A stretch of DNA of 64,000 nt from Chiloscyllium plagiosum (taxonomy: Eukaryota): positions 41,982,139-42,046,138 of the forward strand of contig NC_057719.1 of the NCBI RefSeq assembly GCF_004010195.1, written 5' to 3'. Made by a program: the position numbers and the translations under genes. Positions 340-62,127 of this stretch are shown one piece after another; the stretch's first letter is position 1; the number at the start of each line of letters is the position of its first letter. The notes below the pieces were generated by a model. It saw nothing but the letters and a program-made list of their open reading frames with translations. It was not told where the DNA came from and did no database searches.

Positions 340-724
340 AGATTTAGATTTAGAATCAGTCTAAACATCAGGTCATAGACAGAGAACACAGGGGGCTAAC
401 ACCTTCAATAAGTTGTCTAGCTATCACCATTGTTAACAGCTAACCCGAGAATGCAACTTTTAAAAAAAGGGTTTTGTGATTTACACATGAAAGAAGTGAA
501 ACTATCACTGTATTCTAACTGATGAAAGGCTTAACAGACAATCAATTCTTCAATGTATAATTTCAGTTACATCACACTGCAAATTTTTGCTATAAATTCT
601 GTGTTACGATCGAGCCCTCCACAATCACCTGATGAAGGAGCGTCACTCCAAAAGCTAGTGTGCTTCCAATTAAACCTGTTGGACTATAACCTGGTGTTGT
701 GTGATTTTTAACTTTGTACACCCA
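340..724 (+). mobile_element. Penelope-like element terminal repeat (family A), with decayed hammerhead motif at 626-660
   Basis: Highly similar to 59002-59250 and 60430-60668 (caatgtataatttcagttacatcacactg...cctgatgaaggagc...aagctagtgtgcttccaattaaacctgttggactataacctggtgttgtgtgatttttaactttgtacac); those copies adjoin GIY-YIG coding remnants. Confidence 0.75.
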
Positions 725-959
725 GGCCTATGAGTATCCACAACATAGGTGATTTGCTGATATATCCAGATCCCATCATGGTGACTCTGTCTGGAGGTGC
801 TGCAAATGGTCAGTCAGCAGTGATATTGTCTGTCAATCTGGTTTCTGTTGTTAGGGTTTTATTTTCATGGAATGTAATTGCTGTTCCAGAATTTGCTGAT
901 CTTGGCACACTACAGCCAGGTTTCGCACCAGAAACTGTAGTTTCTCAATCCTAGAACCA

Positions 960-1987: not shown

Positions 1988-4566
1988 ATGGCGAGCCTCA
2001 AAATAGCAGGCCCCAGCCACACCTATGCTAGGGTAACCGCTGCCTTAGGCTCGGCTGTTCCCGCCTCGGCTGCAACCCTGACTCCCTTCAGGGACTTGAC
2101 TAAACGCCTGGGGGTCAAGGCCTATCCCCCTCCCTAATATGTCTATTGAGGTCTGCAGTAAGGCCATGGTTAGTGTGATCGGCCCACTGGCCATCATCGC
2201 TGCAGCCAGAATGTATGGAAGGCCGTATTTGTCCTCAGGACCGAGCAGGCGGTCCACCTAGCTGTGGAGAGGAGGCTCACTGTGGGCGGGACACATCTAC
2301 CCATCGACCCTTTGGAGGTCATGGCCCAGAGGGTTGTGATTTCCAATGTCCCGCCCTTCACTGCCAGAGAGCTCCTTCTTCCCCACCTTCAAACTCTGGG
2401 GGAAATCCAGCCAGGTGTCCGACTGCTCCTGCTCGGTCTGAAGGACCCTGCGCTCCGCCATATATACTCCTGATGTTGGAAGGTGTTCATTTGCCTGGCC
2501 TGGGAGGTGGTCACTGAGGGCTCGTTCACCCTCCTCCATGAGGGCACGGCCTACCGCATCTTCTGGACGACGGACGGAGTGCAGGGTCACCTGTGCCGTG
2601 AGGTGGGGCACATAAAGAACTGTCCCACCCAGAAGGCTACTCAGCCCACACCAACAGCTGAGGGTGGCGCTGCCACACCCACTCCCCCTCCCCCAAAGTC
2701 AACACCACAAGCCCCGGCAGCTAGGGGCTAAGCCAGAGGCTCCTAGTGTATTAGATTAGATTACTTACAGTGTGGAAACAGGCCCTTCGGCCCAACAAGT
2801 CCACACCGCCCCGCCGAAGCGCAACTCACCCATACCCCTACATTTACCCCTAACCTAACACTACGGGCAATTTAGCATGGCCAATTCACCTAACCTGCAC
2901 ATTTTTGGATTGTGGGAGGAAACCGGAGCACGCGGAGGAAACCCACGCAGACATGGGGAGAATGTGCAAACTCCACACAGTCAGTCGCCTGAGGCGGGAA
3001 TTGAACCCGGGTCTCTGGCGCTGTGAGGCAGCAGTGCTAACCACTGTGCCACCGTGCCGCCCATAGTGCCTCGGCCTCTGGCGGGGGTGGGGGTGGGGTG
3101 AGCTTCGGCAGGACAGAAGGCGCGAAAAAAGACCTAATGTGCCAAGCCTGCCCTCATGGAGATTACCCTGTCACCTTCACCCGAAACAAACTCTCAACCT
3201 ACTCCATCCCAGCACAACAATGCCTCTGTGGCCATGCCAGCGTCGCCCCGGCGTGGAAACCCTGACTCCCAACACCACAAATCTATAACTGATCTGTGCC
3301 CTGCTGTGCCTCCTGACTCCCGCCCCGTTACAGAAACCCCGGGGAATCGCTGCCTGGTCCTAGCCCTGCAACACCTAGCCCGGGGATCCCTGAGCCCAGG
3401 CCCTGTCCCACCCAGCTAGCCAGATCCCTACTGCCTTCCTTCCTGCAGCAGCTATGTCTCTGGCCCCTGGGCAGGAAACTAGGTCCCTACCCTGCCCACC
3501 ATCACCTGATAAACAAGGGGTGGGGCAGGAAGTGACACAGTTGGCCCTCCCAACCCTGGCCACGCCCCATGCCCAGTCCCAGCCAATAGTATTCCTGAAG
3601 AAGCTGGGGGAAGAACCTCGTGCCCCATGACCACCAAAGCAAGTGGGCAAGGGAAGGCCCATAGATTCCCCCCGTCTCCCTGAGGAAGAGGTGCTGGCCC
3701 TTGGAGGGGAGGGACTTCCTGGTGGTATGCTGGTGGCACTGTCCCTCCCCAGGGGGTGAGCCTATGATGTCTCCTGCCTGTCCCACATCATGGCCTAACC
3801 TGCCCGAACCCCCAGGGGCTGCAGCAGGACCTTCTGCTGCCATTGTTCCACCAGCCCCTGGGGACAACCATGAAACCAATGTGGGCCACAGTGTGGGCTG
3901 AAATATTGAAATGACCACTGGGTTGTGAGTGGTGGAGGAGAGGAAGGTGTTATCCTCACTCCTCCCTCCCAGACTGTTTTTCTGAGGGCCTTTGCCCTGG
4001 GGTAGACCCTTTTCCCTGAGGAGCTGGGTGTCCCAGTGTCAGGAGAGGAATGTGGCCCTGAGCCTCTGCCGCCCGATGACCTAACCTCTGAGCATTCTGG
4101 GAAGGAGTGCACCGAGGAAGTTACTGCCAGTGAATCTGGAGGTGGGGTAGCTGCAGGTTTGAGGCCAGTTGATGGTGCCGGACCAGCCCCCACTCTCAAG
4201 ATGGGGGAAAGGCCGGTGACCAAGAGTGAATTCCTGGAGGAGGGTTCGGGATCAGTGGTGGACACTGGGGACGACATGGACTCTGTCTCCAGCGAGGTTT
4301 TTGAGTCCCAGGTGCCCCCCACTGAGCTCCCCCTCATCCCCCTCTAGGAACGCTAGGAATTTGTCGAAGAAACTTGGAGTCGCCAGGATAGAGCCCAACT
4401 GGCACTTGAGCGCTGGAGCTCCTTTGAAAGAGTTTACTGGTCAGCCCACGCTGCTCGCCAGGCACCTGGGCTCGACGTGAACGAGCGAAAGTGAATCAGG
4501 AACTTCCTGGGTGCACTCTTGGTGGGGGTGAGGGACTTCTGTGCCCCTCCCTCGTCCTTCCAGTAA
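1988..4566 (+). pseudogene. Tx1-type ORF1 (nucleic-acid-binding, zinc knuckle), broken by stops, frameshifts and a SINE
   Basis: Peptides QRVVISNVPPF..ELLLPHLQTLGEI..LGLKDPALRHIYS and YRIFWTTDGVQGHLCREVGHIKNCP (decayed CCHC knuckle), then Pro/Ser-rich low-complexity tail typical of Tx1 ORF1. Confidence 0.75.
2749..3063 (-). mobile_element. HE1-like tRNA-derived V-SINE inserted in Tx1 ORF1
   Basis: Reverse strand reads gggcggcacggtggcacagtggttagcactgctgcc (A box)...gggttcaattccc (B box)...gtttccacactgtaagtaatctaatctaat tail; flanked by TAGTG direct repeat at 2744-2748 and 3064-3068. Confidence 0.9.
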
Positions 4567-4616
4567 ATGTCTTGAATTTTTAACTGTACTGGTGGTGGTT
4601 GCACAGTACTGCTGAC

Positions 4617-7600
4617 ATGAAGACAACTATAGCCAGCCTCAACATCAACGGCAGCAGGGAGTCACAGCGCAGATTCCAGACTTTCTCAGTCCTTCGGGAC
4701 GGGAGATATGCGGTGTGCTTCCTGCAAGAAACCCACACCACCCTGGGAGTGGCAAGGTTGGGGGAGGGGGGGCGGGGTCTACATGAGTCACCCCGCAGAT
4801 CTGGCGGGGTGGCTATCTTGTTGGCCCCGCATTTTCAGCCGGAGATCTTGGGGGTCAGGGAGCCTGTGCCAGGCTGTTTGCTTCACCTGACGGTTCGGCT
4901 GGGGGGGGTGCGGTGCTTCACTTGGTGAACGTCTACGCTCCCTTGGCCGGGCCGAGGCAAGCGAACTTCTTTGGAGAAGTGTCCGCTCATCTCGCCTCCA
5001 TCGACGAGAACCAGTGTGTCGTCCTCGGGGGAGATTTTAACTGCGTCCTCGAGGACAGGGGGACCACGGCAGTGCCTGCACTGGTTGGGCATTGGGGAGG
5101 AGGTTGGGGGACTTGGTCAAGTCCTTCGACCTGGTGGACGTCTGGCGGAATCTCCATCCCGACTCCATCGCCTTCACCTTCGTGAGGCCTGGAGTCGGAG
5201 CGTCCAGAATCGACCGCCTGTACGTTTCACGGGCGTACGCCTCCTGTTTTCCGAGGGCCTCCACGCGGCAGGTGTCGTGCACGGACCATCACCTGGTGTG
5301 GGCGGAACTCCTTCCGTTCGGCGCCAGGCTCGGCTCCGTGCACTGGCACTTTAACAACCTGCTGCTGGAGGATGAGCAGTTCCAGGACTCGTTCCGTCGT
5401 TTCTGGGCCGGTTGGAGAAGGAAGCAGGGAAGCTTCCCCTCCCGGAGGCTATGGTGGGATGTGGGCAAGGCTCACGTCCGCGTTTTCTGTCAGGAGTACG
5501 CGAGGGGTCAACAAAGAGGCAGAAATCCAGGATCGGGGTGTTGGAGAGGGAGTTGCTCGACCTGGAGTCATGCCTCGGTCAGCCCGACGCGGACCCGGCC
5601 CTGCGCGGGGCATACGAAGAGAAGAAGGCCGCGCTCCGGGATCTGCAGCTCGTCGGGGCTCGGGGCACATACGTGAGGTCGCGGATCCAGCTCCTCCAGG
5701 ACCTGGACCGTGGCTCCCCCTTCTTCTACTCGCTGGAAAAAAGGCATGGCTCCCGTCAACAGCTCCTTGTGCTGCTGGCCGAAGACGGGTCCCTCGTCTC
5801 AGACCCGGAGGGTATCGGAGCCCACGTCCGAAACTATTACATGGCTCTGTTCTCTCTGGATCTGTCCAATGAGGATAATCGCAGAGTTCTGTGGGAGGAC
5901 GTGCTGCAGCTCAGCCCGAAGGACACCAAAATGCTCGACGCTCCTGTCACCTTTAGAGGAGCTGACCGGCCCTCGAGGGGCAAGTCCGCGGGGCTGGACG
6001 GGCTGACTGTGGAGTTCTTCAGGGTGTTCTGGGACTACGCACAGGTCTTGGGGAGTGTCTAAATGTCGGAGAGCTGCCCATTTCTTGGCGCAGGGCGGAA
6101 ACGTCCTGCTGCCAAAGAAGGGGGACCTTCGTTCTTTGAAGAACTGGCGTCCGGTCTCCCTCCTCAGCACGGATTACAAAATCTTCACCAGGGTGTTGTC
6201 TTCTCGCCTGGCCTCCGTGCTGGCCCACATGATTCACCCGGACCAGTCCTACACAGTCCCGGGCTGGAGGATACACGACAACGTCCACCTGGTCCGGGAC
6301 CTGATCCATTTCTGTCGACGGGCTGGTCTGCCGAGCGCCTTCCTGTCTCTCGACCAGGAGAAGGCGTTCGACAGGGTCGATCACAAGTACCTGCTCGGGA
6401 CTCTGCGGGCATTCGGGTTCGGGACGCAGTTCGTCGCCCGGATTCAACTTTTGTACGCCGCCGCAGAGTGAATGGTTAAAGTTAACGGGTCCCTGATGGC
6501 GCCCCTTCGCTTCGGGAGAGGAGTGCGTCAAGGCTGCCCCCTGTCCGGCCAGCTGTATTCCCTGTGCGTGGACCCTTTCCTGCGCCTCTTGCGGAGGAGG
6601 TTGTCGGGGCTGACTCTGCGCGGCGTGGGTACAGGGGGTGGTCCTCTCGGCCTACGCCGACGACATGCTCCTCACTTTCACCAACCCGGCTGACCTGGGG
6701 AGGATGCGCGAGTGCCAGGCCGTGTACTCGGCAGTGTCTTCCGCCAGGATCAACTGGGCCAAATGTTCCGGACTACTGGTCGGTCCGTGGTAGGTGGACT
6801 CTCTGGAGGAGTTATAGGGGTTCAGCTGGAGTACCACCCATCTCCTCTACCTGGGGGTCTACCTCAGCCTGACTGAGGAATCCTGGCTGGTGAACCGGAG
6901 CCGGAGCTGGACGCCAAAGTCTCGGCTCGCCTAGGCCGCTGGACAGGACTGCTGCGAGTGCTATCTTGCAGGACTGCTCCGAGTGCTGGTCAAAAACCAG
7001 CTGGTGGCTGCCATGCTGTGGTACCGGCTGGTCACTTTGGTCCCTCCTCCTGGTTTTGTCGCTGACATCCAGAGAACGTTGATCGACGTCTTCTGGGATA
7101 AAAAGATGTACTGGGTCACTGCGCAGGTTCTGAGTCTCCCTATTGAGGAGGGCGGTCAGTCGCTGGTGTGCGTCCACACCCAGGTCGCGACGTTCCGCCT
7201 TCAGACCTTGAAGCGATACCTTTACGACGAGCCTCCTCCTAGGTGGTGTGCCCTGGTGACGTATTTTTTCCGCCAGGTGCGTAATCTCAACTACGACACG
7301 CAGCTCCTGTTCGTCAACCATGACAGTTTGGAGGTCGCCCTCAGGACGCTGCCTGTCTTTTACCAGGACCTGATCACTGTCTGGAACATGGTCGAATCGC
7401 GCCGCGCCTACCCTCTGGCAGGAGTAACAGCTGTCGTCAGGGAGCTGTTGCTCAGGGATCCGCACCTCCATACTCGCAGGTTCGAGTGGCTGTCGGAGGG
7501 GAGGGCTGTGGCGGCGAGGGTGACCAGGGTCGGGGACGTGCTGGGTGCCGGGGGACTGGGCTGGACACTGCCTCAAGATATAGCGAGCAGGGCAGCGGTA

Positions 7601-8445
7601 GACGGCTGGTACGTGGCCACCGCTATCCAACGCCTTAAAACGGCGGTGCTTGGACCCGACGTAGTGCACCAGTTGGGGGATGCTTAGGTGTGCGGTGGGA
7701 TCCCGTCCGCGCTCACCCCAGCCCGGACGGAATTTCACATTCGCCCCAAGGTCCCCTACTTCCCACGGGAGTCTGTGCCCCACAACCTGAGCCGCCTCTG
7801 GAATTTTAGTTTTGTCCCTTTTTTTAAGGACATGAAAAGGCAGGCCCTGTATTGACTGCTGCTGCACACCATCCACCTCTTTTCCCTCGTCCACCTCTTC
7901 TCCCTTGTCCACTGTCCGGACACGCCTTGTTGTGCCCATTTGCCACCGGGCGGTGGGTATCCCCAGTGTAGGTCTCTATATGCAGGAGTCCTCCCCCTTT
8001 CTCTTGGGGATCTGGGCAACCGCAGATTGCAGCGGTTCACGGACTCCCAGCCTAACTGCTTGCTTTGTGGCGCTGTGGAGTCCGTTGACCACGTGTGGGC
8101 ATTTGCACTGCCTTTTTGATTTCTTAAAAACCACATTCTCTGTTTTTGGTTCACTTCAGTCCCATGCTCCTGATCTTTGGGCACCCGGTACGGAAGAGGG
8201 AGGGCAAGTCTGAAGACCTCCTCGTGGGTCTGCTCCTGGCCAAACTGGCCATAAACAGGCAGTGGGCCGTGGAGGGCATCGTTAGGACCGACTACCTGTC
8301 CCTCTTCCGCGGTTACGTTAGAGCCCGGGTTTCTCTGGAGAAGGAGCACGCGGTCTCCACCAACACCCTGGTGTTGTTCAGGGAGAGGTGGGCGCCGCAG
8401 GGAGTAGAGTGCATTATTTCCCTGTCCAACTCTATTTTGATTTAA
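4617..8445 (+). pseudogene. Tx1-type ORF2: AP endonuclease + reverse transcriptase + C-terminal Cys motif (frameshifted)
   Basis: APE motifs MKTTIASLNING, FLQETH, GGDFN, SRIDRLY, TDHH; RT motifs GLDGL, PKKGDL..NWRPVSLLSTDYK, DQEKAFD, GVRQGCPLS, YADD (6653-6664); CLLCGAVESVDHV near 8060; split across many frames. Confidence 0.93.
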
Positions 8446-8685
8446 TCCCTGCCCTCCCCTTCACTGTTTGATCACACAGCATTGCCCTTTGATGTGAAGG
8501 GCACTGCTTGTCACTGGCCACTCGGGTGTTTCCTTTCTTCCTGGTGGTGGAAACCGAATAAAGATTTGTGCATTTTGTGTCTTTCACTGTGTCTCACACC
8601 TGGCACATGCACAACATGGATGCTGGGGGAAAAAATAAGCTACTGCAGTTAAGCAGTAGTGTGGGGGTAATATTTAAAAAAAAAA

Positions 8686-20535: not shown

Positions 20536-22095
20536 CTGCACATAATGTATCCTGCCAAGTTGGACATGAAATCACAACCTGGACCTGTCTGCACCATGAA
20601 AAGACTGTCCTAAGAATTAAGATCCATGGTAATCGGGGAAGTATTCCAGGAATTAGAACCCACCTATCATTTTTACAAAGTCCTTGAGTCATCCTCATTC
20701 AACAAAAATTTGGATTTGGTCTTTACAGCCTCCCCCATTTGTTTTATTCTCCAACAATCCACAATTGCTGTTAGCATCTATTCAGTATTCATCTCTCTCC
20801 CAGTCCATCAACAATCCTTCTGTCTGTTTTTCCATTATTTTTCTCTCTCTCTCTACCATTTCCATCTATTCAATTCACCCTTTCTCTCACTCCCTGTCAT
20901 CCTCATTAAATATTACTATTTCCCAGTTGTTTTCAGTTCTGATGAAGGGGCACTGGACTCAAAACATTAACTGTTTTTCTCTCCACAGATGTTCCCTGAC
21001 TTACTGATCAGTATGATCTTGTTTCAGATCTCCAGCAGCTGCAGTTCTTTGTTTTATTATGGTTATAATGTGTTCACCTCTGGAGTTTTTGTTGACACTG
21101 AATGAGGTGATTGAGTGTGAGAGTTAGTGTCCCTAGCACTCATTAACAGAAGTGGATAGATGACCCAATAAATGAAGGTGGGTATTTGAACCAGCCCAGG
21201 CTAAGCAAGTGAGGTAGCATCTAAGCAACTGAGGAAGGATCACTGGACCAGAAATATTAACTCTGATTTCTCTTCACAAATGCTGCCAGACCTGCTGAGC
21301 TTTTCCAGCAACTTCTGTTTTTTATCCTGGCTTACAATATCCATAGTTTTTTTGGTTACTATTTTCATGGAATCAGACACACGCTCGTCAGGAATGCCTG
21401 GTCAAGAGTCAGGAATCCTTTAAAAGTTAAATTCAAATGATGTTGACAACTTCATGTGTCATAACTGAGTGATGTAGGAGAAGTTAAGTATGTTTTAACA
21501 CAATTATTCATAATTAATTTAAAAGCTTTTAATGTCAGTCTGTGGAGAAAGAATCAATGTTAACAGTTTCAGTCTTCTGAAGAAAAATCATATTGAAGTC
21601 ATATTAACTAGGCCCTCTTATGGCACAGTGATAATGTCCATAGCTCGGGATCAGGAGGCACAGGTCCAGGTCCCATTTACTCCAGAGGTGTATAATGTCT
21701 GAACTGGTTGATGAGAAAATCAGGCTTAAAAACAACCATATTACTTTTTCTGCAGATGCTGCAGTTTTCACATTTCACCCCAGTACATATTGTTTCTATT
21801 TCTTTCACTAGTTTATACAGCAGCACCTTAAATATAACTCTGCTGTTCACCACGTTAAAACAGAGGTGGGCAGATGCCAGACCTCCTGTACTTTCTGTTT
21901 CAGTTCAGGTTTCCAACATCTGCAGTGCTTTGCTTTTGTTTTAGGCTTTAATATATTTAGAACAGCAACACGCTCATCCTTTGAAGCACCAAAACAGTAG
22001 CCTGTCTGTTCCATGACTTCAAAAATGAAACAGATGGTTGGGATCTTTTAAAGGCACGAAAAGTCATCAAAGGTTGCTCCCAGTGCAGCCAACGA

Positions 22096-22252: not shown

Positions 22253-23689
22253 ATTAGTTAGTACCCATTCAGCATTCATGACTCTCTGCCAGCCCATCAG
22301 CAATTCTTTTATTTGTCTTTCCATTCTTTTTCTCTCTGTGGACACAATTTCCATCCATTCAGTTCAACCCTTTCTCTTGCTCCCTGTCATCAGCATAAAT
22401 ACTATCATTTCCCATCTGTTTTCAGTTCTAATGAAGGGGCACTAGACTCAAAATGTTAACAGTTTTTTTCTCCACAGATGCTGTCAGAATTGCTGAGATT
22501 TTTCAATAAGATCTTGTTTCAAATCTCCATCGTCTGCAGTTCTTTGTTTTATTATGGTTATAACATATTCACCTCTTGAGGTATTGTTGACACAGCTGTG
22601 CAACTGAATGAAGTGATTGAGTGTGAGAGTTTCCCTAACATTCATTTACAGAACTGGACAGATGATCCAGTAGATGAAGGTGGGCCTTTGAACCCACTCA
22701 GGCTAAGCATTTATCCACCTCGGTTTTAACATGCTGAACAGCATCAATGTATTTAAGCGGTTGCTGGCTAACAAGAGAAAGAAGTAAAAGCAAATTATGT
22801 TGGGGCAAAATGAAGAAGGTTGCATGGAGCATAAATGCTACTTTGATACATTTTTGCACTGTAAAACTCTATATAATTGTCCTACATTACATTCTGTGAA
22901 GCATTACCTTTTGAATTGGGAGTGTCACTTTCTAAAGCAGCAATAACTCTGGCAGATGCTTCCCTTCCTTCATTCATCATTTTTTCCAATCAATTTTGGA
23001 TTTCCATTGACTCAAATCTTTCACTGGCACCATTTATCTTCTAAATTTTTGTGCTTCTAATTTGTTTTTATTTACTTTCTCAAGTTCATTCCCGCTATAG
23101 ATTGCAGGATTTGTGAGCATAGAACTGGTGTATTTCTGCATTATAGTGAGTCATGAAACAAGCAAATACTGAGGCTTCCAAATCAGTTGCCATTTTGTTT
23201 ACAGATGACATTTCTTTAAATCCAAAAATTCCTTCATTAAACCTCCTTTTTCATTTCCTGACATTTTGGAGTATGTTGGGATATCCCTGTGAATCATCAC
23301 ACTCTACCACAGTAATAGGAATTGTTTCTTTCCTCCTTTCTATTTTCATTTTCATTTACATCCTCATTTTGTTTTCAAGTAAACTGAAATAATATCTGGG
23401 CACTTGTTCAGTGAACTCACAGCAGCTAAAAATCTCCAGCTGATCAATCCTTTCTTGTTATTCTTTTGCTTGATCATCTGCCCCTTAAATTAGGGTTGGA
23501 GTCATGTCACCTCCTAAATGAAACAGAGGCAGCAAGATTTAAATTTTAAGAATTACAAGAGATTCAATATAGTTCAACTCCCATGTTAATAGAATTCTTT
23601 GTTGCGTTTCACCTACTGCTCCTCACTGAGTTGCATTTTCAATTTCTATAAATTAACAACTCACATTCAATTTGCATTTTTAATGTAAT

Positions 23690-35410: not shown

Positions 35411-36379
35411 TCGCACAGAGTGTTTCACTATCCTTCTCACATTTCACAATACTTCCAAATTTTGTGCATTCTACAAATTTTGAACTTATAGCCTGTGTAC
35501 CCAAGTATTAGTTATTAACATAAATCCAAAAAAGCAGTGATGCTGATACTAACCTCTGCAGAGCCCCACTGCACACTTGCCTCAGTCAACAAAACATTCA
35601 CCATTACTTTGTATTCCTTATCACTCAATAAGCTTTCAATTCATGCAAATATTATCCCTTTTATTTCACATGTTTCAACTTTGCTGGCAAAAGCATACTA
35701 TGTGGCATCTTACCATGGAATGCCACATACACCACATCGACTGCATGACTCATTAACCTGTGTTGTGCATAACTTAATCATGTCAATTAAATATGATATA
35801 CCCCTAATAAATCTGTGCAGGTTTTACTCAATTAGTCTTCATTTCTCCAAGTGATGAACTTATTCTTCACAACAGCCTCAGTCACTGGACCCAAAACATT
35901 CACTTTGCTTACTCTCCACGGATGCTGCCAGACCTGTTGAGTTTCACCAGCAATTTATGTTTTTGCTGCATGATGTGCTACCTGTATTCAAAATAGCAGG
36001 TCTGGGTTAATCATATTTTGTGGTGTTCAGATCTCATCAATTGTTTTGGTCATGATTTTCTGTAATCATGTCAGTTTAACACTAGACTTATGTGATTTAC
36101 ATATCTATGTATGCAAATTGTATTCTTTATAACAAGTTCACCAATTCTGGGAAAAGTGAATTACAATATTTCTATCCAAAATTAACCAAAACGTCAGCTC
36201 TAAGTCAGGGTTACTTCAAAGTGGAGGTCATGTGTGGTTCGGAGCCTAGATTTCCAGGTCATGAGTTCTGAGACAGTCATGGTCAGCTATGAATTCCCAA
36301 TCTCATAGATCCTCTTTCACACTGCCTCTTTTTGCAGCTCTTCTCCCACTTTCTCACAACTCTACCTCCATCTCATGTC

Positions 36380-41046: not shown

Positions 41047-41230
41047 GATTAGAGTGGTGCTGGAAAAGCGCAGCAGGTCAGGCAGCATCCGAGGAGGAGG
41101 AAAAGCGATGTTTCAGGCAAAAGCCCTTTATCAGGAATAGAGGCAGGGAGCCTCCAGGGTGGAGAGATAAATGGGAGTGGGGGTGAACTGGGGTGTGGGG
41201 GGGGGGAGGGGAAATGAGGAAACTGGTGAG
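41047..41230 (-). mobile_element. Penelope-like terminal repeat fragment (family B) with mutated hammerhead
   Basis: Same as 31090-31240 and 47400-47490; core reads ctgataa-agggc-tttt-gcct-gaaac on minus strand. Confidence 0.8.
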
Positions 41231-45545: not shown

Positions 45546-46635
45546 AAAATAAAAAGTTTCACTTTACACAATCATTTGAAACTATTATAGTATTATTTCA
45601 TAAAATCATCTAATGTTTCAAAACTGAACTTTCCATTTTTTAAACTTATGATATAGTTAGCATAACCCACATTTGTCCTTGGCACGAAATGGATATGTTG
45701 CTTTGATTAAACACCTCAGTTTGGATGGCTAATCAATACAGGAAACGAGAGTATTGAATTCTGTATCTATAGAATTAACTATTGACTTCTGATTTTTATT
45801 TTGGTTTATTTTCAACTTAACACATTCCAGATTCTACTCCTTCAAAATTTGATGATTAGCCTTAGATGACAATAAAACGAACTATTCACAGGAGATCTTT
45901 GTTGAATGCAATGAAGCAGGAATACAAGATGTACAATTATGTACTTGTACATGATGGGAATGAATAAGAAACTACTGCAGTGAAACTTACCTTGAGCAAT
46001 AGCACATTCACAGCCCATTTTACTTAATAGAAAAGAAAATAAGTGGATGTATAATCAGTTGCTAACTTTATTATCCAATTTTTGCAACTGTCCAATACCA
46101 ATTTGAACCCTAATGACTAAGGCCTAACCCTATTGGAAATTGTAAATTTGTTATAATTTTTTTTCGTGCAGAGTGCATCAATCATTTGAACTGATAATTG
46201 CTGAGTATGATTCACGCCAAACAAGTCTCAGATAAACTAAGAGAGAGTCTGCCTATTTCCACCTGATATTTAGAGACATTACCATGACTGATTTCCACAC
46301 TATCAATACTCAATAGTCCTTATTGGCTTGAAGAATGACTAAACCAGCTAAATAAATCTCATAACTTTTACAACAAGTCAGATGCTTGAAATTATGTGGT
46401 AAATGGTTCATTGTCTTGCTTCAAAAAATGTATCCACCATTTACAAAGCAAAAGTCAGGAGTATGTTGGAAAATGGTTGTGGAAGGGCCTCTTTCCTTTA
46501 CGCTACACTCAAACTGGTGTCTGGGGTTCAACGATTATTGTGGTGGTCTCTTTCCAGCAGGCTCTGAAACTTCAAAGACCCGAAATGTTGCACTGGGGCA
46601 ACTCAGCTGGAGAGAGAGAGTGCTGAACCAAACTC

Positions 46636-47500
46636 ACCACATTTCCGCCACCTACAAACAGACACCAGACATATATTTCCCTCCCCACTCTATTCACTTT
46701 CTGTAAAGACCGTTCCCTCTGCGACTACCTCCTCAGGTCCACTCCCCCCAACAATCCACCCTCCCGTCCTGGCACCTTCCCCTGCCATTGCAGGAATTGC
46801 AAAACCTGTGCCCACACCTCCTCCCTCACCTCCATCCAAGGCCCTAAAGGACCCTTCCATATCCATCACAGTTTCACCTCTCCTTCCATACATGTTATTT
46901 ACTGTATCCGTTGCTCCCGATGTGATCTCCTCTACATTGAGGAGGCAAGACGCCCACTCGCAAACTGCTTTAGAGAACATCTCTGGGCCCCCCCACACCA
47001 ACCAACCCCACTGCACCGTGAACAAACATTTCAACTTCCCCTCCCACTCTGCCGAGGACATACAGGTCCTGGGCCACCTCCAACACCACTCCCTCACCAC
47101 CCGACGCCTGGAGGAAGAACGCCTCATCTTCCGCCTCGGGACCCTCCGACCCCACAGCATCAATGTGGATTTCACCAGTTTCCTCATTTCCCCTCCCTCC
47201 CACCTTACCCCAGTTCCAACCTTCCAGCTCAGCACCATCCTCATAACCTGTCCCACTTGTCCACCATTCTTCCCACTTATCCACTCCATCCTCCTCTCCG
47301 ACCTATCACCTTCACCCCCCCCATCCACCTATTGCACATTCAATTACCTTCCACCCAGCCCCACCCCCTTCCAATTTTTCTATCCATCTGAGAGGTTCCC
47401 AGCCTTATTCCTGATGAAGGGTTTTTGCCCGAAACATCAATTTTCCTGCTCCTCTGATGCTGCCTGACCTGCTGTGCTTTTCCAGCATCACACTGTTGAC
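46636..47500 (+). mobile_element. Penelope-like element 3' part (GIY-YIG remnant + hammerhead-bearing terminal repeat)
   Basis: Frames give GTFPCHCRNCKTC, HVIYCIRCSRCDLLYIEE (GIY-YIG signature), HFNFPSHS..RRLEEERLIFRLGTLRPHSINVDF; ctgatga-agggt-tttt-gccc-gaaac at 47411-47435. Confidence 0.9.
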
Positions 47501-49637: not shown

Positions 49638-50530
49638 TTTTTTTAATTTCAAAAATATACTTTATTTGTAAAATATTTTGATGATCTGTACAATTGGTCA
49701 TGCCATACATCCGTAAACATTCTATTTCTTGATTTATAGAGACAGAGTAATTATTTATATACACAGGTCTGTACGATTACATATTTAGCTGAGGCGTCAG
49801 CAGAGCCCAAATGACTGCGTGGGCCCCCTATTCTTCGTTAGGCAGGCAGACTTTACACAGTGGTCTTTCCCCACCGCGCCTTGGCGGCAGCTGCCCCAAG
49901 CTTCAGCGCGTCCCTCAACACGTAGTCCTGGACTGACACGTAGTGCCAGTCCGCAATACTCAGTCGGGGTCAACTCCTTCAGCTGGAAGATCAACAGGTT
50001 TCAGACCACCCAGAGAGCGTCCTTCACTGAGTTGATGATCCTCCAGGCACAGTTGATGTTCGTCTCGATGTGCGTCCCGGGGAACAGACCATAGAGCACG
50101 GAGTCCCGCGTCACGGCGCTGCTCGGGACGAACCTCGACAAACACCACTGCATTCCTCTCCAGACTTCCTCTGCATAGGCATATTCCAGAAGGAGGTGTA
50201 TGACAGTCTCGTCCCTTCTGCAGCCGCTTCGAGGGCAGCGTGCGGTGCGGGAGAGAGTCCGGGCATCCATAAAGGATCTCACAGGCAGAGTCCTTCTCAC
50301 CACCAGCCAAGCCATGTCTTGGTGCTTGTTGGAAAGTTCTGGCGATGAGGCATTCTGCCAAATGGCTTTGACAGCCTGCTCAGGGAACCACTCAATAGGA
50401 TCCGCCCTCTCCTTTTCCCGAAGGGTCTCAAGGACACTATGTGCTGACCACTTCCTGATGGACTTGTGGTCAAAGGTGTTTTTCTTCATAAACTTCTCCA
50501 CGAAGGACAGGTGATACGGAACGGTCCGGA
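49638..50530 (-). mobile_element. 5'-truncated Tx1/L1-like LINE of a second family (C-terminal zinc-binding region + 3'UTR + polyA)
   Basis: Minus ORF 50001-50543 IWQNASSPELSNKHQDMAWLVVRRTLPVR..CPRSGC..ETVIHLLLE..WRIINSVKDALW; aataaa and T-run at 49638-49668 on plus. Confidence 0.88.
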
Positions 50531-51512
50531 TGCAACTCATCAACAGATTACCACACAGTTAAATCCTGATCCAAAACTGCCTGAGCAATGTGATATATAC
50601 CACTTACGCACAAAACATTCCATGTTAAAGTTGAGTTTGCCCTATTAGATAACTTCAAAAAAAATGTTAAAACATCAAAAACTGAGAAGTTGTCATGGAC
50701 TCAATGTGTGAATTTTCATATGGTGTACTGCACAGTTATTATACCTGGTAAACATGACACTTACTCATGGGCTTCCAAGTCCAGTTCATTTGCGTACCCA
50801 CTGGATTCATCACGGATACAAATTACATGTTAGAATACATAATAAAAAGGAAAGAACAATGCTCAGCTTACTCACTTTACTGTCAGAGAGCTTCATCAAT
50901 CATTTTAATCACACAACTCAAAAATATGTCTACAAAAGAACCATCTGTGCCATGAATCTTGTTCCATGCCTCACATCTCCCTGAACAGCAATTACTTGCA
51001 CACTTAACTTGAAAATTCTGTCTTCCTTTTCTTTTAAGGATGATGTCACTATTTCTTCATGTTCTACTCTCCCATGGTATTTGGCACATGTTGCTCAATG
51101 GCCAGCACCCCTCACATTGATGCAACCTTTTCCACAGGACAAAATGACACACAGTGCCCTCATGAGATATTCCCACCTTTAAAGCTTTCATATCCTAAAG
51201 GCAGAAATCATAAATTCACGGGAAGACACTGGGCATGGGAGGTCACCAATATGTTTCAATATCCAGACAATGAGTGAATGATTATGGCCTGGCATCCACG
51301 TTAAACACCTAGAGAAAGAACAGTCCATTCCTTTCACACATATTGTTACCTTTTACCTTTTCTTTCTACTTACCTCTTCCTTAATTGGTCCACCAATGCA
51401 AACTTTAGTCAGAAAACACTATACTCAAATTTTCAAACACAGTGCTTCTGGTTTAACACAGAATTTAAGCTAGAAAGTCAGGAATATCTCCAAAATCTGA
51501 GGCAACAGGAGC

Positions 51513-58776: not shown

Positions 58777-59217
58777 AAAGTTAAAAATCACACAATACCA
58801 GGTTATAGTCCAACAGGTTTAATTGGAAGCACACTAGCTTTTGGAGCACTGCTCCATCATCAAGTAGTAGTGGAGGACACAATTGTAAGGCACAGAATTT
58901 GTAGCAAAAGTTTACAGTGTGATGTAACTGAAATTATACATTGAAAAATACCTTGATTGTCCGTTGAGTCTTTCACCTGTTCGAATACCATGATAGTTTC
59001 ACATGGTATTCGAACAGGTGAAAGACTCAACAAACAATCAAGGTATTTTTCAATGTATAATTTCAGTTACATCACACTGTAAACTTTTACTACAAATTCT
59101 GTGCCTTACAATTGTGTCCTCCACTACCACCTGATGAAGAAGCGACGCTCCGAAAGCTATTGTGCTTCCAATTAAACCTGTTGGACTATAACCTGGTATT
59201 GTGTGATTTTTAACTTT
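58777..59217. repeat. Near-perfect palindrome of two Penelope-like (family A) terminal repeats
   Basis: Arms 58777-58992 and 59002-59217 (~216 bp) are reverse complements around a 9-nt spacer atagtttca. Confidence 0.95.
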
Positions 59218-59392
59218 GTACACCCCAGTCCAGCACCGGCATCTCCAAATCATAAATTAAAGAAAAATCAACATATCAACAACCCTTTGTATAAAAGCTA
59301 TATATCATATTTTGGAGGTGCCAATGTTGGACTGGGGTACAAAGTTAAAGATCATGCAACACCACGTTATAGTCCAACAGGTTTATTTGGAA

Positions 59393-59428
59393 GCACTAGC
59401 TTTCGGAGCACTGCTCCATCATCAGGTA
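59393..59428 (-). ncRNA. Minimal type I hammerhead ribozyme motif (intact core)
   Basis: Minus strand: uac-CUGAUGA-u-GGAGC-agu-GCUCC-GAAA-GCUA-gug; helix I uac/gug. Confidence 0.65.
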
Positions 59429-60171
59429 GTTGTGAAGTATAAGATTGTAAGACACAGAATTTATAGCAAAAGTTTACAGTGTGATGCAACTGAAATTATA
59501 TATTGAAAAAGACCTGGATTGTTTGTTAAGTCTCTCATCTTTTAGAATGGCCATGTTGGTTTCAGTTCTTTCATATGTAAATCGCAAACTTATATGTGTG
59601 TGTATGTGTGACTGTGTGTGTAGAGGGGAGGAGTTGGTATGAGTGATGTGAGAGTATGTGTGTATATGTGTGAATGTGAGTGTAAAAGGGTATAAGTCTG
59701 TACCCATGTACCCCATGGGTACTAAGCTTGGCTATCAGCCTCTGCTCGGCCACTTTGTGTCGTTGCCTGTCCCGAAGACCGCCTTGGAGGATGGTCACCT
59801 GAAGGTCGGAGGTCAAATGTCCTGGACTGCTGAAGTGTTCTCCAACTGGAAGTGTTCCCTTCCATGGGGATGGCCTCAACCGGGCCCTTGGGTTCATGTC
59901 ACATACAGGTGACCCCACTGCACTACTCACTCACTCACTCTCTCTCACACACATGCACACACACCCCTTTACGCTCACACACATACACACACTTTCTCAC
60001 AGACACACATACCCCCACCCCCACACACACATGCACGTACACACACACACATTCTAAGTTTGTGGAGTGAATTTGTACTTGCAGATTTACATTCTATTTT
60101 GCTCAAAAACTGCATGAATCAATGTAAGATTCTGTAAATCCCTTTGTTAGAAATAGAATCAGTCTAAACAT

Positions 60172-60320
60172 TGTCCCATAGTGTTAGGTGCATTAGTCAG
60201 GGGTAAGTTAGAGTAGGGGAATGAGTCTGGGTGGGTTACTCTTTGGAGGGTCAGTGTGGACCTGTTGGGCTGAAGGGCCTGTTTCTGTACTGTAGCTAAT
60301 CTAATCTAATCTAATCTAAT
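60172..60320 (+). mobile_element. HE1-like SINE 3' fragment
   Basis: cccatagtgttaggtgcattagtcagggg..gggctgaagggcctgtttctgtactgta..(ctaat)n. Confidence 0.85.
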
Positions 60321-60577
60321 TGAGGCGTAGACAGCCTCCACGGGGCACCTCACACTTTCAATGCATTATCTGAACCGATATGGCACTTATTGTTAAAGTC
60401 CACTTGAGAATGTAACTTTAAAAAGAAGTTCTGATATGAAATAACTGAAACCAACATGGTCATTCTGAAAATGAGAGATTTAACAAACAATCCAGGTCTT
60501 TTTCAATATATAATTTCAGTTGCATTGCACTGTAAACTTTTGCTGTAAATTCTGTGTCTTACGATCTTATACTCCAC

Positions 60578-60618
60578 AATCACCTGATGAAGGAGCAGCG
60601 CTCCGAAAGCTAGTGCTT
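60578..60618 (+). ncRNA. Minimal type I hammerhead ribozyme motif (intact core)
   Basis: aau-CAC-CUGAUGA-a-GGAGC-agc-GCUCC-GAAA-GCUA-GUG: helix I CAC/GUG, perfect 5-bp helix II, palindromic AGCU helix III, predicted cleavage after CUA. Confidence 0.7.
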
Positions 60619-62127
60619 CCAAATAAACCTGTTCGACTATAACCTGGTGTGTGATTTTTAGCTTTGTATACTTCATATGTTTTACTCAGTCACAATAATG
60701 TGTGTAATTTTTTTCCAGGAAGTATCAGAGGTTTTCCAACTTATGTTTTTAGGAATCTCTGACCCCTTGTATTTTTTTTCGCAGGAGAATGTAAGCCTAA
60801 TATTCTTATCTATGGCTCAGAAATAAGTAATTATGCTCAAAGTGCAATAACTCTCAGGTTTAGTGCAACCATGGCTATGGTTTTCAAAATGCTTTGCAAA
60901 CAGCCTTGGAAGTGAGGAAGAGGGGAGTAGCAGTCCAGACATTATCACAAGAAGAATTGATTTTCCCAGGGTGGACAGGCAAGTCTGTGGGACTGGCAAG
61001 AGGATGTGAAGACAAGGTACTAAAGCACTTAAAGTATCATTGATCAGGACTATCATTTACTCTTTCCAACTTTGCACAAAACACACATGAACCACAATGG
61101 GGTCAAAACACAGATTTTTCAGGGCCACAGTTCAGGGCTGAATTCAACAGCCATCAGCTGAAACAGCTTGCCTTCAGAGGAAAGCTAAAGCGGTGATGCT
61201 GTACCATGTTGCTGTGAGGGGAGGAGTTGCCAGCACTTTGGAGTTAAGCATCTCTCATGATTTCTACTCACTGACATGTAGCTGCACTTAAAGCAGACTG
61301 AAGAGGGGGCTCGGGGGAGGGGCTGGATTTCAATGGCGTAGCTGATGTAAGTACGTGTGACAGTGGCCGTCAAAACTGTCAGTGTCCATCAACCTTGGGC
61401 ATTGTCCAATCAGGACTCGGGTCCTCCAGCTATGGCCACAGAAATCAGGATTTCATGGTCACCATCAGGGGGCAACCACAGGTGGGGAAGTGGGAGATGC
61501 AGCTCAACATAAGCTCCAGCATGGCCCCAGCTTGTAGCAGAGGTTGTGCCGGCAGGGAATGAGCTACCTCTGTCTCAGTTTGAAGACTTTATTTTAACCA
61601 AGTATGAGAAAACACAAATTATCCAAAGATAAGTCTTTCTATCTATGAAAAGCAGAGGCTCCATATGTATGTGCAAGGTTCCCAAATTATTCTTGCAATT
61701 CACTGATGATCCTTACTTTGAGCTACTGTTTTCACTCTGTTTTCCAGCTTTCTTATCATCATCTCCGGTATGATTCGGCTGCTTTAACCTTAAAAGCACA
61801 TTTTCTTAACTGGACAGAGTGTTCTATTCAGGAATACAAGTGCCGCCCCAACTACCCAAACTTAAGGAACTTGCCCGAATGAAAAACAAAATTGTTAATA
61901 GTTGTTTCCCTGGTGATGTTCTACATGCCTAGATCAAATTCTGTTTGAAATTCTTCATGGAGAAGCCAGCTCACTTCACGACACAAGAACTACAGCAGTG
62001 ACCAATTTGCTCAGACTTCCCTAACTGATATCCACATGTCATTGTGTTTCCTGGCATTTACCTAGGGGTGTCATTCCCTCCTTCTCAAATTTTAACTTAG
62101 CATTCTGCTAGCTAGTTTGGGTGACTA

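Follow-up and report, generated by a model that had tools for sequence, protein, structure and literature searches.

Metazoan Penelope-like elements carry minimal hammerhead ribozymes with a CUGANGA core, an extra base past A9, a G10.1-C11.1 pair, a short helix I and a palindromic 15.2-16.2 segment without loop 3, mostly found as solitary truncated copies and as pairs on opposite strands (PMC4209133). Tested monomers of such motifs were inactive and dimers weak (PMC4209133), and the hammerhead of the Anolis PAc Poseidon element cuts only with the element's protein (PMC11167929). In that element the motif lies shortly upstream of two tail-defining element ends, reverse transcription begins at the two tail ends, and the ORF begins in stem II (PMC11167929). 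A reverse transcriptase (RT)-linker-endonuclease order with a CX2-5CxxC linker marks the Neptune and Nematis clades, and an inverted, 5'-truncated copy with a one-sided tail is a described form of Penelope-like insertion (PMC8557442). The Clec2 3'-UTR hammerhead of mammals cuts just upstream of a polyadenylation signal and removes the poly(A) end (PMC6765202). Non-LTR retrozymes, which have a type I hammerhead and a link to Penelope-like elements, consist of head-to-tail tandem units and include one positive cartilaginous fish (PMC7229834; bioRxiv 10.64898/2026.07.22.740005).

The motif at 60581-60615 of the window (the whole 64,000-nucleotide stretch of DNA that was analysed) agrees point by point with the minimal hammerheads of PMC4209133. 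The first-pass annotation had read an intact core, a 5-bp helix II, a 3-bp helix I and an AGCU palindrome on the + strand, and all of these letters are present exactly as claimed (Table 1). The core is complete (C3 U4 G5 A6 N7 G8 A9, G12 A13 A14 A15.1, U16.1, H17), helix II consists of 5 bp with G10.1-C11.1, and one extra base follows A9. The palindrome AGCU (15.2-16.2) replaces helix III and is unchanged in all five window copies, and helix I, for which 3 bp are possible, closes the motif as in type I hammerheads. The predicted cut position and the extra base A9.1, both named in the same annotation, agree with our descriptor and with PMC4209133, whose Fig. S3 has a G-C palindrome in the turtle row and an A at 17 in the Xenopus row, as here. 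In contrast, no shark occurs among the 56 rows of that figure or in the searched part of its supplement. Our search found no literature on shark Penelope-like hammerheads either, and the one matching review uses the word "shark" only for a shape.

A strict descriptor (core, helix II of at least 3 bp, palindromic 15.2-16.2, NUH and helix I of at least 3 bp) found two sites in the 64-kb window, 60581-60615 (+) and a sister at 59425 (-), and none in any of 200 block-wise dinucleotide shuffles of the window. A looser hammerhead pattern matched three times against 0.02 expected matches. A chance origin of the motif is rejected on these figures, and the descriptor search that had been proposed as a check thus bears out the annotation. 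The accompanying proposal of an Rfam search gave no such result: at E<=10 the whole window yields 14 matches and 60540-60660 two, and none of them belongs to a hammerhead family. Because minimal motifs lack helix III, this miss counts only against membership of the Rfam families. The folding energy by itself is unremarkable (z = -0.77), and an exact-pattern search for further copies yielded none in viral contigs and none in metagenome contigs. The microRNA-like Rfam matches, every one of them under the gathering score, were rejected as candidates, because they result from 58777-59217, a 441-bp near-perfect palindrome of two repeat arms (216-bp arms, 94% complementary, 9-nt spacer).

Table 1. 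Positions of the features discussed in the text, as coordinates of the window.
Feature	Position	Strand	Remarks
Minimal type I hammerhead, copy D	60581..60615	+	predicted cut after A60612
Helix I, copy D	60581-83 with 60613-15	+	CAC and GUG
Core, copy D	60584-90	+	CUGAUGA
Extra base, copy D	60591	+	A
Helix II, copy D	60592-96 with 60600-04	+	GGAGC-AGC-GCUCC, 60592-604
GAAA, copy D	60605-08	+	
GC UA, copy D	60609-12	+	
Palindrome AGCU, copy D	60608-11	+	
Poly(A) signal hexamer	60622..60627	+	begins 10 nt past cut site in copy D
Switch of family reads to poly(A)	60639..60642	+	362 reads behind 60639, 583 behind 60642 (X21)
G/U-rich stretch	60643..60662	+	G or T at 15-17 of 20 positions and 1-2 A in 5/5 copies
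Arm D	59863..60670	+	inverted, 5'-truncated; last ORF codons (P0002), CA-rich stretch, pseudo-LTR
Arm C	59311..59864	-	5'-truncated element with internal deletions, tail present
GIY-YIG endonuclease C-terminal piece, Penelope-like ORF (P0001, 50 aa)	59715..59864	-	opens arm C
Copy C motif	59394..59428	-	passes strict descriptor; U as extra base, helix I with one U-G pair
Candidate 6-bp target-site duplication TCATAT	59305..59310 and 60673-60678	+ (first site)	short, AT-rich, could be chance
Separate head-to-head insertion, same family	58777..59250		arm A on - (tail-less), arm B on + (tail)
Copy A	58777-59001	-	motif damaged: C3U and G12A
Copy B	59002-59250	+	motif damaged: mismatches in helix II and helix I
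Copy E, fifth pseudo-LTR copy	344..728	+	G12A, helix II closing pair broken
Later insertion into arm D, different short repeat	60170..60320	+	ends (CTAAT)5
Other hammerhead-core repeats	20939, 47411, 54479	+	
Other hammerhead-core repeats	31186, 19554	-	
Pieces related to other hammerhead-core repeats	21229-21322, 22257-22709, 35882-35965, 41051-41229		
GC-rich LINE-like element	~3500-8460		Exo_endo_phos (E 0.001, below cut-off), RVT_1 (E 3e-18), several frames
LINE-like remnant related to the preceding element	~49960-50560	-	

The motif, a minimal hammerhead, belongs to the pseudo-LTR of a very abundant shark Penelope element of Neptune-like type. Its placement in the pseudo-LTR is seen from the ORF end upstream on both arms and the tail downstream. 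An origin from a shark Penelope-like repeat had been proposed from the letters alone, and the protein matches uphold it. P0001 matches 13 proteins among 21 candidates with 61-82% identity, and all eight named ones are from sharks, namely six from Chiloscyllium punctatum (76-82%) and one each from Heptranchias perlo (65%) and Mustelus asterias (61%). P0013, the longest true element match, contains RVT_1 (E 5e-9) as well as a C-X4-CxxC linker and an endonuclease region at its C-terminus, and P0012, which aligns to the C-terminal region of P0013, matches GIY-YIG (E 2e-5). The order of RT and C-terminal GIY-YIG is thus that of these relatives, whereas the locus itself has only a C-terminal piece. 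Likewise, the linker is present in P0013, P0004, P0011 and P0015 and absent from the truncated locus. In a survey of 35 animal genomes Neptune was among the groups found and Nematis was not (bioRxiv 10.64898/2026.07.22.740005). The linker and domain order of the relatives, together with this survey, are the reason for the label Neptune-like, a provisional call, as Nematis shares the linker. The locus differs from the Neptune clade of PMC8557442 in that only the last ~65 codons of the ORF are covered, broken and divided between two arms. It differs from the Anolis PAc element in its clade and in showing no identifiable ORF start, and resembles it in the position of the hammerhead shortly upstream of two element ends. 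Four Chiloscyllium punctatum predicted proteins with ankyrin or GPCR domains (P0003 and P0007-P0009) contain the same endonuclease end, which may represent either annotation artefacts or exonised copies.

Copies A/B and C/D constitute two head-to-head insertions with ~55 nt between them, and arms B and C exceed A and D by ~30 bases at the 3' end, arm D being devoid of the terminal tail of ~30 nt. The inverted, tail-less arm matches the insertion form described in PMC8557442, and C/D is an old head-to-head insertion. Over the pseudo-LTR, arms C and D share 218 identities, with 17 mismatches and 4 gap positions. That introns account for the deletions in arm C was rejected, as the joins show short shared letters and, by eye, no GT-AG. 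A short palindromic duplication lies at 59700-59730, where the ORF piece of arm C breaks off. The short repeat at 60170-60320, which we take to be SINE-like, has four more pieces in the window. Retrozymes are tandem units, whereas the window copies are dispersed or head-to-head and have ORF remnants; a retrozyme reading was rejected, with no hammerhead tandem array among the eight rows listed. Regarding a host gene, one of 53 selected candidates (23 of 40 exons and 30 ORFs) gave a Pfam row, which is below the cut-off. The unique flank 60685-61242 was also found in a second organism (X12), with 20 differing letters in a 595-letter piece, a divergence near that accumulated per arm of the insertion. 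That the second organism shares the insertion is suggested by a contig covering 60648-61242, which enters the repeat by ~21 letters where 31 are needed for a bridge.

While this kind of hammerhead has been known since 2014 and a single intact motif matters little, being one of very many decayed copies, the poly(A) signal behind its cut site is less ordinary and was not found described in the papers searched. All five copies contain a hexamer 10-12 nt past the cut, AATAAA in C and D and ATTAAA in A, B and E. These are the two strongest forms of the poly(A) hexamer. RNA was represented by X21, a single-cell poly(A) RNA run of one sample with the same species label, of which ~2/100 were sampled; such libraries show mainly 3' ends. 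Among the loose ends listed, 945 of 3245 family reads (reads, not distinct molecules) carry poly(A), switching to it 12-15 nt past the hexamer. The G/U-rich stretch behind this switch fits a downstream element, judging by its letters, and holds no A-run for internal priming. Most first mates at 60565-60604 belong to the - strand (1547, with 247 on the +), and together with the A-runs this places the RNA on the sense strand of the hammerhead. Identity to copy D is at least 99% in 7 of the 3245 reads, 95-99% in 376, 90-95% in 1473 and below 90% in 1389. RNA from sister copies thus appears, in this one sample, to use the poly(A) signal behind the hammerhead. Since the hammerhead directly precedes a used signal, cleavage would take the poly(A) end off the RNA. 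Depth is equal on either side of the cut site (1547 and 1615), and therefore the poly(A) RNAs are uncut; as the 3' product of a cut, ~29 nt with poly(A) added, would probably be lost, depth is no test of cleavage. The flank 60685-61500 received no reads in X21, which is weak evidence because a poly(A) single-cell library can show neither intronic nor cut RNA.

The closest known case, Clec2, is alike in the position of its cut just upstream of the polyadenylation signal, although that hammerhead is split, full-size and domesticated in a host gene with demonstrated activity, whereas the present one is a predicted minimal motif in a retroelement (PMC6765202). No published account of a hexamer behind a hammerhead was found in our search, which covered openly readable papers and the main texts of preprints; the main text of PMC4209133 does not mention a poly(A) signal, and PMC11167929 does not report polyadenylation. 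In Fig. S3 of PMC4209133, 11 of the 56 motifs have AAUAAA or AUUAAA in the 15 letters past the cut, counted by eye, and none in the 15 letters before the core. Row-wise letter shuffling gives 2.7 expected cases (P ~1e-5), a post hoc figure, as the idea preceded the count, from rows that are not independent. The 11 rows comprise a cnidarian, a rotifer, a fly, a wasp virus, a tick, a nematode, a limpet, a tunicate, a hemichordate, a frog and a turtle. The arrangement is not general even in the window, since the five other hammerhead-core repeats listed there have no hexamer within 150 nt. The geometry of the element RNA would be fixed if a poly(A) site in use lay between the cut and the RT start sites, and shark transcripts could receive their 3' ends from the abundant copies.

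The Penelope family carrying the motif is very abundant. At 85% likeness, 40400 and 43005 contigs from two DNA runs align to the stretch (figures that are not a copy number), and the unique flank sits at single-copy depth in the same runs. Many contigs cease to match just before the motif: 234 before 60581 and 359 before 60582 in X1, and 131, 224 and 338 before 60575, 60581 and 60582 in X12. Behind 60650 there are 1023 (X1) and 1045 (X12) contig ends. Depth rises 15-fold (X1) and 6-fold (X12) across the front edge, beyond which the ending contigs continue with long, poorly agreeing, AT-rich letters. The letters preceding 60582 in these contigs share a common ending, and subfamilies that differ upstream could account for part of the clustering. 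None of the six contig ends listed per run falls on the cut site, 60613. Both runs also contain several strand-switch joints that connect 60580-60584 to 60613-60620 (1-4 contigs each), inversion points at both motif edges in both organisms.

The R region of a retroviral LTR is the comparison for a block present at both RNA ends. It is conceivable, though we would sooner doubt than defend it, that a block of ~60 nt made up of hammerhead and poly(A) signal and repeated at both RNA ends acts like such a region. Transcription would begin at the leading edge of one pseudo-LTR's hammerhead, the RNA would be polyadenylated ~28 nt past the cut site in the next pseudo-LTR, and each unit RNA would hold two hammerheads able to pair in cis. 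Since the RT start sites (arm end and tail end) are located past the poly(A) site, such an RNA would contain them only near its 5' end. Copying to the 5' end would yield many short inserts beginning at the hammerhead; longer copies would need either a strand jump via the repeated block or a double-cleavage circle. The poly(A) site before the element ends (in one sample), the contigs stopping at 60575-60582 and the hexamers in the rows of Fig. S3 (PMC4209133) are the observed parts of this scheme. None of the five window copies begins at the front edge of the motif.

With regard to copy D, we consider it highly probable that the motif is a fossil passenger of a shark Neptune-like element, inert at this place, and that in the active family it was slow and helped by protein. 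It would have arrived at the locus as part of a Neptune-like Penelope element whose active family used it. Its present place is the second arm, inverted and without a tail, of a head-to-head insertion that is truncated at the 5' side. In the living element, by analogy with the tested relatives, it would most likely cut slowly after CUA as an AGCU-joined dimer, and probably only with protein help; the literature searched gave no relative cleavage rate for CUA and GUC. The state of the copies is in line with decay. Strictly intact motifs remain in two of five (C and D). The arms differ at 14 of 181 sites in C/D and at 11 of 181 in A/B, which corresponds to a chance of 0.32-0.41 of keeping the 29 needed sites if the arms of each insertion were alike at insertion, and two intact motifs in five are therefore as neutral decay predicts. 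These rates suggest that copy D retained all its letters by chance. With 15/175 departures in the motif against 41/499 upstream, the latter including subfamily differences, the motif is conserved no better than its upstream part, and G12 was lost at a CpG in two copies. The poly(A) block was kept better than the motif (7/225 against 15/175 departures in five copies), and five copies have little power to reveal selection. Covariation among the copies, which the first-pass annotation had named as a check, did not appear: none of the five helix II pairs is changed on both sides, and 2 of 25 cells are unpaired, in only five decayed copies.

Copy D had also been proposed to cleave itself, alone or in trans with sister copies. 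This could be true if + strand RNA began between arms C and D and the motif were helped by protein or paired with a sister, and such RNA would escape burial by the antisense arm, which is a point against our preferred reading. All core letters and both helices are present, no majority family difference falls within 60581-60633 among the 40 differences listed of 132, the family is expressed (X21), and transcription starts in the pseudo-LTR are described for Penelope and Chlamys-3 (PMC8557442). Nevertheless, the predictions speak against it, and we regard it as improbable. Helix II has a predicted pair probability of 0.96-0.99 in the 41-mer and 0.56-0.81 with flanks, whereas helix I reaches 0.22 in the 41-mer and at most 0.015 with longer flanks; at 37 C the predicted fraction of molecules in which both helices form and the core is free is 3e-2 for the 41-mer and falls to 2e-3 to 3e-4 once flanks are included. 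The cut site is also covered by a competing 4-bp hairpin, whose probability is 0.55-0.96 in RNAs that stop at the poly(A) site. An AGCU:AGCU duplex contributes -2.5 kcal/mol, which is little for joining separate molecules, and free co-folding of two motifs pairs the helix II arms instead. The dimer was scored by these two measures only, its true fold being pseudoknotted, and the models take no account of proteins, tertiary contacts or co-transcriptional effects. On the same strand the nearest sister, B, lies 1453 nt upstream, damaged and locked in a 216-bp hairpin, and the antisense twin of this copy is located ~1.2 kb upstream. Owing to the head-to-head layout, the antisense arm is transcribed first in either direction, and in modelled read-through RNA containing both arms 32 of 35 motif bases (+) and 34 of 35 (-) are paired to the opposite arm. 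The motif would thus neither fold nor cut in such RNA, and given this burial cleavage at the locus is unlikely. The X21 reads show no start or end pile-up among the positions listed, in a library unable to hold cut pieces. Copy D is, by these models, probably inactive in place.

That the whole family is non-catalytic, the motif being kept for protein binding, as a promoter or for 3'-end processing with the hammerhead shape as a leftover, would fit the equal depth of poly(A) reads across the cut site and the better-kept poly(A) block. The literature also reports that ribozyme mutants of the Anolis element leave in vitro insertion unchanged and that no RNA-seq ends occur at its cut site (PMC11167929), and that Naiad elements spread without canonical hammerheads (PMC8557442). 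We nonetheless hold this to be unlikely: in vitro cleavage is documented for related motifs, either in dimers or in the presence of protein (PMC4209133, PMC11167929), poly(A) libraries select uncut RNA, and other Penelope-type repeats of the window share the core despite a different helix II and palindrome. A somewhat stronger, still minority, case can be made that a few host genes ending in a copy, or genomic A-runs in some copies, are the source of the poly(A) reads, and not element RNA. X21 is a single sample, of which a second run (X22) gave no matching reads, a result that speaks neither way; its 945 reads come from the loose ends listed with the number of distinct molecules not given, and no full-length element is among the sequences analysed. 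Against this stand the several identity classes of the reads, their 153-237 start places at nearby variant sites, the strong-form hexamer in all five copies, the lack of an A-run past the poly(A) site, and the recurrence of the hexamer past hammerheads of distant animals in Fig. S3 (PMC4209133).

Apart from the family of copies A-E, the window contains at least two other hammerhead-core repeat families, mostly decayed at CpG, whose helix II differs and whose palindrome is of the ACGU type. At 46627-47391 an ORF remnant that includes a C-X-C-X2-CxxC linker shows 32% identity to P0013 over 66 aa, and it is therefore read as part of a second Penelope-like family.
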